Shown: positions 36,872 through 37,537 of the stretch, piece after piece
Layout: every line of letters begins with the position of its first letter
Numbering within the stretch: the stretch's first letter is position 1
Assembly: GCF_013167455.1 (NCBI RefSeq)
Contig: NZ_CP038328.1
Length of the DNA stretch: 64,000 bases
Reading direction: 5' to 3' (one strand)
DNA from: Escherichia coli O157:H7
Lineage (GTDB): Bacteria > Pseudomonadota > Gammaproteobacteria > Enterobacterales > Enterobacteriaceae
Position numbers and translations under genes: made by a program
Notes under the pieces: generated by a model
Databases searched by the model: none
Seen by the model: only the letters and a program-made list of their open reading frames with translations
Told to the model about the DNA's origin: nothing

Positions 36872-37087
36872 AGGTGTATTGCTCAATCTTCGAACGGGGG
36901 GAGGATTGTAGCAGAATCGCATTTGAATGTGACCGCGTGTAAGCCGCTAACCGGTTGGCTGCGGATGTTTAAATCAGAGAGAGAAGACCGAAATCGGAGT
37001 TCATCGTGAATCCATTAGACTTAGAAAATATCGGGTCGTAACGTTGTGTTATTACTTTTTCAGAGTTTACTAAGGAGAGGTTTACTC

Positions 37088-37537
37088 GTGGCGATTAATT
37101 TCAGCCCTAAGGTTGGTGAAATACTGGAATGCAACTTTGGTAACTATCCTGTTAGCCAAAATGGACCGTTCAGCACGACGTATTACGATGGCCGCATTCC
37201 TCCTGAAATGATAAAAAACAGGTTAGTTGTCGTGCTCAACGGAAAAATTAATGGCAACGCATTCATCGTCGTTCCATTATCAACCACTCGCGACCATGAC
37301 AAGTTAAAACGTGGAATGCATGTTGAAATAGCCAGTAATGTTATCAATGACCTGCAATTCTTTGATCAGCAGATTCGTTGGGCCAAAACCGACCTGGTAC
37401 AACAAGTCAGTCGAAACAGATTAAACAGAGCAAGAACTTACAGAGGGTATCTTAATCAATGTTTGCCACATGAGTTGGTTGCAGACATACAGAGGGCGGT
37501 CATCAAGTCAATCAATGCCATATCGCTCATAAATTGA
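37088..37537 (+). CDS. yifN: Uncharacterized YifN; MazF/PemK-like (Kid-toxin fold) protein without adjacent antitoxin gene, GTG start
   Basis: RBS TAAGGAGAGG 8 nt before GTG at 37088; translation VAINFSPKVGEILECNFG...NRLVVVLNG...FIVVPLSTT... resembles the MazF/PemK motif order by eye (family assignment from memory). Confidence 0.7.
   Translation: MAINFSPKVGEILECNFGNYPVSQNGPFSTTYYDGRIPPEMIKNRLVVVLNGKINGNAFIVVPLSTTRDHDKLKRGMHVEIASNVINDLQFFDQQIRWAKTDLVQQVSRNRLNRARTYRGYLNQCLPHELVADIQRAVIKSINAISLIN

Follow-up and report, generated by a model that had tools for sequence, protein, structure and literature searches.

Type III toxin-antitoxin (TA) systems (ToxIN, CptIN and TenpIN/AbiQ) link an RNase toxin to a repeat-containing small RNA and have no protein antitoxin. 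They are carried on plasmids and mobile islands, and their toxins have an endoribonuclease core fold related to that of Kid/MazF. Here we compare with them the yifN locus of Escherichia coli O157:H7, found in a stretch of 64,000 nucleotides (contig NZ_CP038328.1 of assembly GCF_013167455.1) which we call the window. This locus shows much the same combination, known here from the genes and the transcript: an RNase-type toxin gene, a linked small RNA with two, occasionally three, hairpin units, no protein antitoxin, and carriage of its relatives on plasmids and mobile islands. We give about an even chance to the proposal that yifN and the RNA downstream of it make up a type III-like TA module, consisting of a MazF-family toxin and a hairpin RNA antitoxin. 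The case is carried by the fold and catalytic residues of YifN and the lack of a protein partner, by an RNA that is present, expressed and structured, and by a linkage of RNA and yifN that was found in both directions. The likeness to type III has its limits. YifN belongs to the Pfam family PemK_toxin and not to ToxN, CptN or TenpN, PADLOC gave no match, and the RNA units are hairpins of 3-4 bp with loops of 4-6 nt, whereas the known type III repeats are 34-45 nt long and form pseudoknots.

With the type II systems MazEF, PemIK (Kis-Kid) and ChpBIK, YifN shares the toxin superfamily, the fold and the Glu/Arg/Thr(Ser) active-site positions, but the yifN loci have no MazE/PemI-like gene in any lineage. 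The defining feature of type II therefore fails, and the automatic PGAP label of the protein, 'type II toxin-antitoxin system PemK/MazF family toxin', is misleading. Solitary MazF homologues controlled in trans, for example MazF-mx of Myxococcus xanthus with MrpC, likewise are MazF-family proteins without an adjacent protein antitoxin; yifN differs from them in having an adjacent, co-inherited and dedicated partner, which is an RNA. The concept of solitary MazF-family toxins has been discussed before, together with the observations that many members of toxin families are solo and that it is an open question why cells tolerate them (PMC2701414). In the preliminary description of this DNA yifN was placed in that category, as an orphan toxin-fold gene. 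That view has to be given up, since a small-RNA gene accompanies yifN at every full-length locus examined.

The RNA was recognised when 160 nt past the yifN stop codon were compared across all lineages. A conserved element of ~75 nt is present there in E. coli, Photorhabdus, Serratia, Pseudomonas, Xanthomonas, Roseateles, Legionellaceae and Pasteurellaceae. Its parts in the window are these:

37534-37562, + strand: promoter of the small RNA (sRNA), with the -35 box TTGACA (37534-37539), a 17-bp spacer and the -10 box GATAAT (37557-37562), 11 of 12 consensus bases
37569-37647, + strand: small RNA gene of ~79 nt, made up of 5' GUA, hairpin 1, U-rich linker, hairpin 2 and terminator, the 3' end being inferred
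37572-37583, + strand: hairpin 1, GCC[CAUAGA]GGC
37595-37607, + strand: hairpin 2, UCCC[CUUGA]GGGA
37611-37638, + strand: intrinsic terminator hairpin with U-run, 98.9% paired, 9 of 10 pairs covarying, shared by the sRNA and the read-through yifN transcripts

The RNA starts at 37569 with GUAGCCC, and the -35 box of its promoter overlaps the yifN stop codon TGA (37535-37537). A promoter-like pair of -35 and -10 boxes was found in all 36 lineages scored, with at least 9 of the 12 consensus bases in 26 of them, and in 33 of the 36 the -10 box ends 6-7 nt ahead of the first conserved base of the RNA. The terminator is further supported by the single-sequence fold (-27.8 kcal/mol, z -2.8). In most loci the RNA lies 31-64 nt past the yifN stop, and up to ~120 nt past it in the P0156 locus, which belongs to a divergent protein clade (class 2). 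The Shewanella RNA is inverted relative to yifN and has kept its orientation to its own promoter, and the Herbaspirillum locus (L048) has two RNA copies ~0.8-1 kb upstream of yifN on the other strand. The conserved promoter and these inverted and displaced copies indicate that the RNA is a gene of its own and not just a 3' untranslated region (UTR).

A palindrome, TTGAC-N(3-6)-GTCAA, lies over the -35 box of the sRNA (37534-37550; also in loci L016, L026, L039, L041, L173 and L181). Perfect copies occur in Photorhabdus, one Pseudomonas lineage, Cellvibrio, Legionellaceae, Vibrio p57 and P0163, and the E. coli copy (TTGACAATAAAATCA) is degenerate. The palindrome might serve as an operator or form a hairpin at the 3' end of the yifN mRNA; a role as general operator was rejected, given the few lineages with a perfect copy and its degenerate state in E. 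coli.

The RNA gene lacks a PGAP annotation, and an Rfam 15 scan of 36700-37900 in E-value mode gave no family match, only one chance viral match. It is the same transcript as the K-12 sRNA ecr3777(d+), 79 nt long, which RNA-seq and northern blots revealed on the yifN strand 3' of that gene, in the ppiC-yifO/yifN intergenic region (Romero et al. 2014); Conway et al. 2014 saw it too. There it was reported as an unnamed candidate sRNA only, without structure, conservation, a yifN link or function (Romero et al. 2014). In the searchable literature we found no published link of ecr3777 to yifN, nor any account of the conservation or structure of this RNA. The gene (COG 'YifN, PemK superfamily') and the transcript were each known before, and it is their pairing, and the conservation and structure of the RNA, that appear to be new.

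How closely are the two genes linked? A covariance model of the RNA (R1), built from 27 sequences, found one full-length RNA at each full-length yifN locus searched, and two in the Herbaspirillum locus (38 matches in all, 32-96 bits). Its sole match above 25 bits in the 64-kb window is at 37569-37644, with 79.2 bits. It also matched pCAR1, a 50-kb E. coli plasmid, a 4.3-kb ColE1-type E. coli plasmid, Vibrio p57 and pPHE20, and the linkage holds down to 30% identity of the YifN proteins. No RNA was found by R1 at the chromosomal site empty of yifN or next to yifN fragments. The reverse test was a scan of metagenomes by a sequence pattern of the RNA only. It returned 80 loci, of which 22 were R1-positive (at least 73 bits) and the other 58 were chance matches of the pattern. 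In 21 of the 22 R1-positive copies yifN lies directly upstream on the same strand. The exception (L099 284-2253, 2300-2412) carries an IS21 element (IstA/IstB) just upstream of an intact RNA promoter and gene; this element has apparently replaced or interrupted yifN.

The two genes are lost unequally. RNA and coding sequence (CDS) were each found in 4015 E. coli genomes, but at 99% identity or more the RNA with its promoter is present in 3845 of the 4015 and the CDS in 1536. Among E. coli alleles whose CDSs have a proportion of synonymous differences (pS) of ~0.15, the 76-nt RNA has no substitutions. The 72 enterobacterial plasmid records contain the full RNA in 70 cases, a full-length CDS in 60 and a truncated one in 12. 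A disrupted yifN next to an intact RNA is thus a common finding (the K-12 allele, the IS21 contig, the truncated plasmid CDSs), while an intact yifN without the RNA was seen in none of the loci searched. Such asymmetry, with yifN broken and the RNA kept, is the pattern that a toxin-antidote pair predicts.

The RNA structure is supported by covariation. Pairing reaches 94% of cells when the alignment is fitted to the model and 83% when it is shuffled, and 14 of the 17 pairs show changes on both sides. The covariation value is 0.368, compared with 0.152 for shuffles and at most 0.10 for slid controls, and none of 500 shuffles reached it. Hairpin 1 is paired in 100% of cells in 38 sequences, with GC/CG/UA/GU exchanges, and was independently predicted by RNAalifold. 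Hairpin 2 is paired in 77% of cells, a count lowered by register shifts, and three of its four pairs show changes on both sides, for example UCCC/GGGA to UUCC/GGAA in Xenorhabdus. Two other folds were rejected: pairing of the 5' arm of hairpin 1 with the 3' arm of hairpin 2 reaches 89% of cells with covariation not beyond shuffles, and the long-range stem of the single-sequence minimum-free-energy fold of the E. coli RNA is not conserved. A search of the RNA for a conserved single-stranded seed region found nothing beyond the variable U-rich linker.

The hairpins also differ between lineages in an ordered way. The Pasteurellaceae plasmids have two identical CGG[CAUAGA]CCG hairpins, in which the stem is swapped and the loop is that of E. 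coli hairpin 1. In class 2, to which the 4.3-kb E. coli plasmid, Vibrio p57, P0156 and P0163 belong, there are two GCC[GCAA]GGC or GCC[GAAA]GGC hairpins. The units are therefore identical repeats in both these groups, and diverged in E. coli. A third hairpin stands between hairpins 1 and 2 in Roseateles chitinivorans (L040 4537-4645) and in a Rubrivivax metagenome-assembled genome (L043 4537-4644), making an RNA of ~108 nt. The loop class of the RNA (CWUWGA in class 1, GNRA in class 2) tracks the protein clade, protein identity being 42% within class 2 and 32% between classes. The anatomy of the RNA, with two repeated hairpins, conserved loops and covarying stems, and its change of loop class with the clade of a protein whose RNase family is dimeric and binds RNA, suggest recognition by a protein.

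The candidate for this protein is YifN, encoded and preceded as follows:

37088-37537, + strand: yifN CDS, GTG start, 149 aa, PGAP WP_000996692
37071-37080, + strand: Shine-Dalgarno-like TAAGGAGAGG, 7 nt ahead of the GTG, read from the sequence
36872-37087, + strand: rep-yifN spacer, which houses the unmapped yifN promoter and 5' UTR and is without a conserved open reading frame (ORF)

The region 36800-37800 of the window is 100% identical to NZ_CP030767. The local gene order is gppA, rep, yifN, ppiC, ilvC, ilvY, with rep on the - strand (start at 36871) and 216 bp between rep and yifN. A MazF/PemK-like product of 149 aa with a GTG start and a strong ribosome-binding site had been described here by eye, and both points hold. 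All the motifs named there were found in the product (GEILECNF, residues 10-17; NRLVVVLNG, 44-52; FIVVPLSTT, 59-67), and TAAGGAGAGG precedes the GTG at 37088. An alternative in-frame GTG at 37046 (37046-37087) would extend YifN by 14 residues (MLLLFQSLLRRGLL), and a Ribo-RET study reports that E. coli yifN is initiated at the annotated site as well as at one further upstream (bioRxiv 10.1101/520783). The homologues begin at the position equivalent to 37088, not at the upstream GTG.

The sole significant Pfam match of YifN is PemK_toxin (PF02452, i-E 2.4e-10, residues 38-141), and the same match is precomputed for nearly all listed homologues. An AlphaFold2 model made from 41 homologues has a pLDDT of 80.8 and a pTM of 0.76 and is low only at the N-terminus and at residues ~21-40. 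With this model Foldseek found 53 matches in the PDB at E<=1e-3, and the top 50 listed are all MazF-type toxins (probability 1.00, target TM 0.66-0.80), among them MoxT, B. subtilis YdcE/MazF with RNA, S. aureus MazF and M. tuberculosis MazFs. YifN is thus predicted to adopt the MazF/Kid/CcdB-type SH3-like barrel with a C-terminal helix. The sequence has moved far from these relatives. A PDB sequence search detected no solved structure with the single YifN sequence or with the profile of 41 sequences (the sole match, phage P1 DarA with E 0.17 over 43 residues, was treated as chance), and since even the family profile finds none, we regard the YifN family as a divergent clade. NCBIfam and PADLOC searches with YifN gave zero matches.

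Catalysis by MazF depends on the pair R29 and T52, and its toxicity also requires E24. We aligned the YifN family profile by hhalign with a set of five MazF, Kid and ChpBK reference sequences, of which that of E. coli MazF alone was verified against PDB entries (3NFC and 1UB4). The alignment paired E40, R45, P63 and S65 of YifN with E24, R29, P50 and T52 of MazF. These four are among the residues invariant in the 41 family members (C15, G18, E40, K43, R45, P63, S65, R111 and Q135), and the subfamily at 30-34% identity retains all of them but Q135, which is Arg in 2 of the 4 class-2 proteins checked. YifN is ~40 residues longer than E. coli MazF; the hhalign comparison places a 16-residue insertion, of low confidence in the model, at the equivalent of the beta1-beta2 loop, together with two more insertions. 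Between diverged intact E. coli alleles of yifN pS is ~0.15 and the nonsynonymous proportion (pN) ~0.01, with pN/pS of 0.04-0.10. By these ratios intact E. coli yifN is under purifying selection and therefore is not simply decaying. As judged from the alignments, YifN keeps a MazF-type active site and is a putative endoribonuclease. The preliminary description had left three options for it, a domesticated, an inactivated or a differently regulated enzyme; the invariance of E40, R45 and S65 makes the former two unlikely, and the last one fits the evidence. Four substitutions, Q27P, C59F, N74K and A101T, set the O157 allele apart from the other intact alleles of E. coli. Position 59, directly before the VVPLS active-site strand, is Cys in most family members.

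No protein antitoxin was found beside this putative toxin. The ORFs of at least 20 aa listed for the rep-yifN spacer are just two, of 22 and 28 aa, so that the earlier judgement that the spacer has no plausible antitoxin ORF stands, although the frames of 11-14 codons given for it were too short. Neither ORF is conserved, because the upstream sequence is wholly different between lineages. When neighbouring ORFs of 35 aa or more, up to 900 bp away, were clustered for ~50 loci, there was no inter-lineage cluster, only lineage-local synteny, and no MazE/PemI-like antitoxin gene was detected in the window or in ~60 related loci. The genes 5' of yifN vary (rep, lipoprotein, RadC, and on small plasmids primase and recombinase). 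A conserved 'antisense ORF' (WQKP...RSL...) was rejected as the RNA gene read in the wrong sense, because 1- and 2-nt indels between close relatives break any frame.

The locus was earlier assigned to a core region, and here the genomes speak otherwise. In E. coli it is an indel-polymorphic segment:

36915-37719 (approximate, ~800 bp), no strand: presence/absence segment with yifN and the sRNA, from the alignment of the window, K-12 and the empty-site genome NZ_CP069528

Of 5426 complete E. coli genomes, 4015 (74%) carry the segment and 1411 lack it. Where it is absent, ~29 bp stand in its place, so the rep-ppiC region is dimorphic, with ~865 bp including yifN and the sRNA or with 86 bp (e.g. 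NZ_CP069528). No flanking direct repeats were seen at the segment. In the 86-bp state (e.g. avian pathogenic E. coli O2:K1:H5; L003 1573-1658) the ppiC-proximal sequence differs. In Superficieibacter electus yifN also adjoins rep (L014). The K-12 gene has a 1-bp deletion and is annotated as frameshifted; this 449-nt allele occurs in 9 of 30 evenly sampled E. coli genomes, and several truncated YifN protein clusters exist.

Beyond E. coli the family is sparse and patchy, with just 48 representatives in 1.84 billion clusters (E<=1e-10) and yifN in 44 of 100,044 species genomes. The hosts are Superficieibacter, Photorhabdus, Xenorhabdus, Serratia, Pantoea, Rahnella, Pseudomonas, Xanthomonas, Shewanella, Cupriavidus, Roseateles, Herbaspirillum, Legionellaceae and Pasteurellaceae. 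Relatives of yifN are carried by at least 119 plasmids, 59 of them conjugative, which include pCAR1-type IncP-7 plasmids, 50-220-kb plasmids of E. coli and Klebsiella, and 4-8-kb mobilisable plasmids of E. coli, Glaesserella and Actinobacillus. On this distribution in the genome sequences, the yifN locus is mobile and indel-polymorphic rather than core.

Some of the settings deserve mention. In pCAR1-type plasmids (L058, pCAR1 80041-92487; L004-L007) the two genes stand within a long same-strand array of small ORFs, which also carries an orphan N-6 DNA methylase, GNAT, phosphatase and prohibitin. In three other loci (L021, L026, L027) a gene for single-stranded DNA-binding protein lies ~300-500 bp downstream of them. 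These plasmid settings resemble leading or anti-defence regions. In a marine metagenome (L182) a YifN homologue (922-1386) is directly 3' of a Cas6f/Csy4 gene (178-720), and the contig ends exactly where the RNA begins (…GTAGCCCT). Two groups of candidates were not accepted into the family. The Vibrio 'phage' PE elements (L172, PQ189296 etc.) have a protein of 27% identity, without equivalents of P63 and S65, and without a convincing RNA; in Vibrio cyclitrophicus these elements are ~13 kb long, and their PemK-like gene comes after cro-like and LexA-like genes and is followed by direct repeats TTGAGGGTCATTGAAG. Behind P0145, a variant of 277 aa, lies an 88-aa ORF, and the RNA is absent.

How might such a module work? 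YifN would be a MazF-family endoribonuclease, probably a dimer like MazF. The ~79-nt RNA would be made from its own strong constitutive promoter, and its sequence would also form the 3' end of the read-through yifN mRNA. As the -35 box of the sRNA overlaps the yifN stop codon, this mRNA would end in both hairpins, allowing autoregulation. The hairpins of this abundant RNA would bind YifN, one per protomer or per RNA-binding groove, and block the RNase site, in a manner resembling the binding of ToxN by ToxI. The RNA is probably unstable, so that when its synthesis stops, by loss of the plasmid or segment or by phage-induced shut-off, it would decay. The freed YifN would then cleave cellular RNA and arrest growth, and the outcome may be addiction to the plasmid or islet, or abortive infection.

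Several points weigh against this proposal. The toxicity of YifN, the RNA-protein binding, the inhibition and the role in plasmid addiction or abortive infection are steps that we infer. All MazF/PemK toxins characterised so far are, to our knowledge, neutralised by proteins. In known type III systems the RNAs are tandem repeats that are processed, or pseudoknots, encoded upstream of the toxin under a shared promoter and with a terminator between the two, whereas the yifN RNA is downstream with its own promoter and terminator. Its stems are just 3-4 bp long, and the support for hairpin 2 is modest, at 77% of cells paired and with no call by RNAalifold. The hhalign match of YifN to MazF is only moderately strong (probability 49%, E 1.8e-4). 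The correspondence of loop class and protein clade could reflect shared descent and not co-adaptation, because physical adjacency alone gives co-inheritance. Finally, K-12 expresses the RNA despite having yifN as a pseudogene, which could mean that the RNA has a job of its own.

This last point leads to the opposite view of the pair, in which the RNA is the effector, for example a trans-acting regulator of genes of the host or plasmid, and YifN is the protein that binds, processes or stabilises it and is no toxin. The tight linkage of the two genes agrees with this view, the kept loops and covarying stems suggest a protein-bound RNA, and within E. coli the RNA is more conserved than the CDS and still expressed in K-12 beside the frameshifted yifN. 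We nevertheless consider it unlikely. The full MazF catalytic set is invariant, which is more than binding alone would require; an RNA that needs YifN should vanish after the loss of yifN, and disrupted yifN with intact RNA is common; and no conserved single-stranded seed was found beyond the variable U-rich linker. A regulatory relation of another kind, in which the RNA or the 3'-UTR hairpins govern translation or stability of the yifN mRNA by base pairing (type I-like) or in cis, without inhibiting the protein, seems to us doubtful to a greater degree. The -35 box over the stop codon means that read-through yifN mRNA ends with the RNA sequence and terminator, and by inspection the CU-rich UCUCCCC could pair with the Shine-Dalgarno AAGGAGAGG. 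That CU-rich stretch, on the other hand, is the 5' arm of hairpin 2, and the duplex energies of cognate sRNA and mRNA are no better than those of non-cognate or shuffled pairs (permutation p 0.20 for the initiation region and 0.08 for the whole mRNA, in a test that is weak). The inverted and displaced RNAs of Shewanella and Herbaspirillum exclude a purely cis 3'-UTR role there, and type I toxins are small hydrophobic peptides, whereas YifN is a 149-aa soluble protein of MazF fold.

That YifN is after all a solitary toxin-fold protein, domesticated, regulated extrinsically or neutralised in trans, with the RNA as a mere terminator or passenger, we hold to be very improbable. It would account for the absence of an adjacent protein antitoxin and for the housekeeping neighbours of yifN in E. 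coli, and solo toxins are common in genome surveys (PMC2701414). A passenger, though, would not stay together with promoter, hairpins and terminator across gamma- and betaproteobacteria, on plasmids of 4-200 kb and at 30% protein identity, nor would it exceed the CDS in conservation, and the locus is mobile, not core. Mobility, frequent carriage on plasmids, the short G+C-rich inverted repeats that could be sites for a protein or for single-stranded DNA, and the TTGAC-N6-GTCAA palindrome over the -35 box in some lineages would all suit an element acting at the DNA level, with the hairpins serving in recombination or attachment, in single-strand initiation or as a protein operator of the mobile segment, and with the transcript incidental. 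This can hardly be the case: promoter and intrinsic terminator are conserved at fixed distances, a discrete 79-nt transcript was seen by northern blot, G-U pairs substitute for G-C and A-U in the stems, and element and promoter face the same way even where the element is inverted with respect to yifN.

Returning to the toxin-antitoxin proposal, its broader form is that yifN and its RNA represent a previously unrecognised TA family, in which a MazF/PemK endoribonuclease is neutralised by a directly bound small hairpin RNA, with reversed gene order and a separate promoter, on conjugative plasmids, on small mobilisable ones and in chromosomal islets of Gamma- and Betaproteobacteria. To this we assign a little less than an even chance. 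The system is short, with an intact toxin gene in O157, a frameshifted one beside an expressed RNA in K-12, and further copies on small plasmids, and is therefore tractable. It offers a testable answer for one clade of 'solo' toxins, namely that the partner is an unannotated RNA. If true, it would show that RNA antitoxins can serve toxins of the MazF family, and it would account for a class of 'solo' MazF genes. The MazF/PemK superfamily of type II would then be tied to the RNA-antitoxin logic of type III, with a minimal hairpin RNA added as inhibitor of a MazF-fold RNase; the automatic 'type II' label would be wrong for the YifN family, and the northern-validated E. coli sRNA ecr3777 would gain a function.

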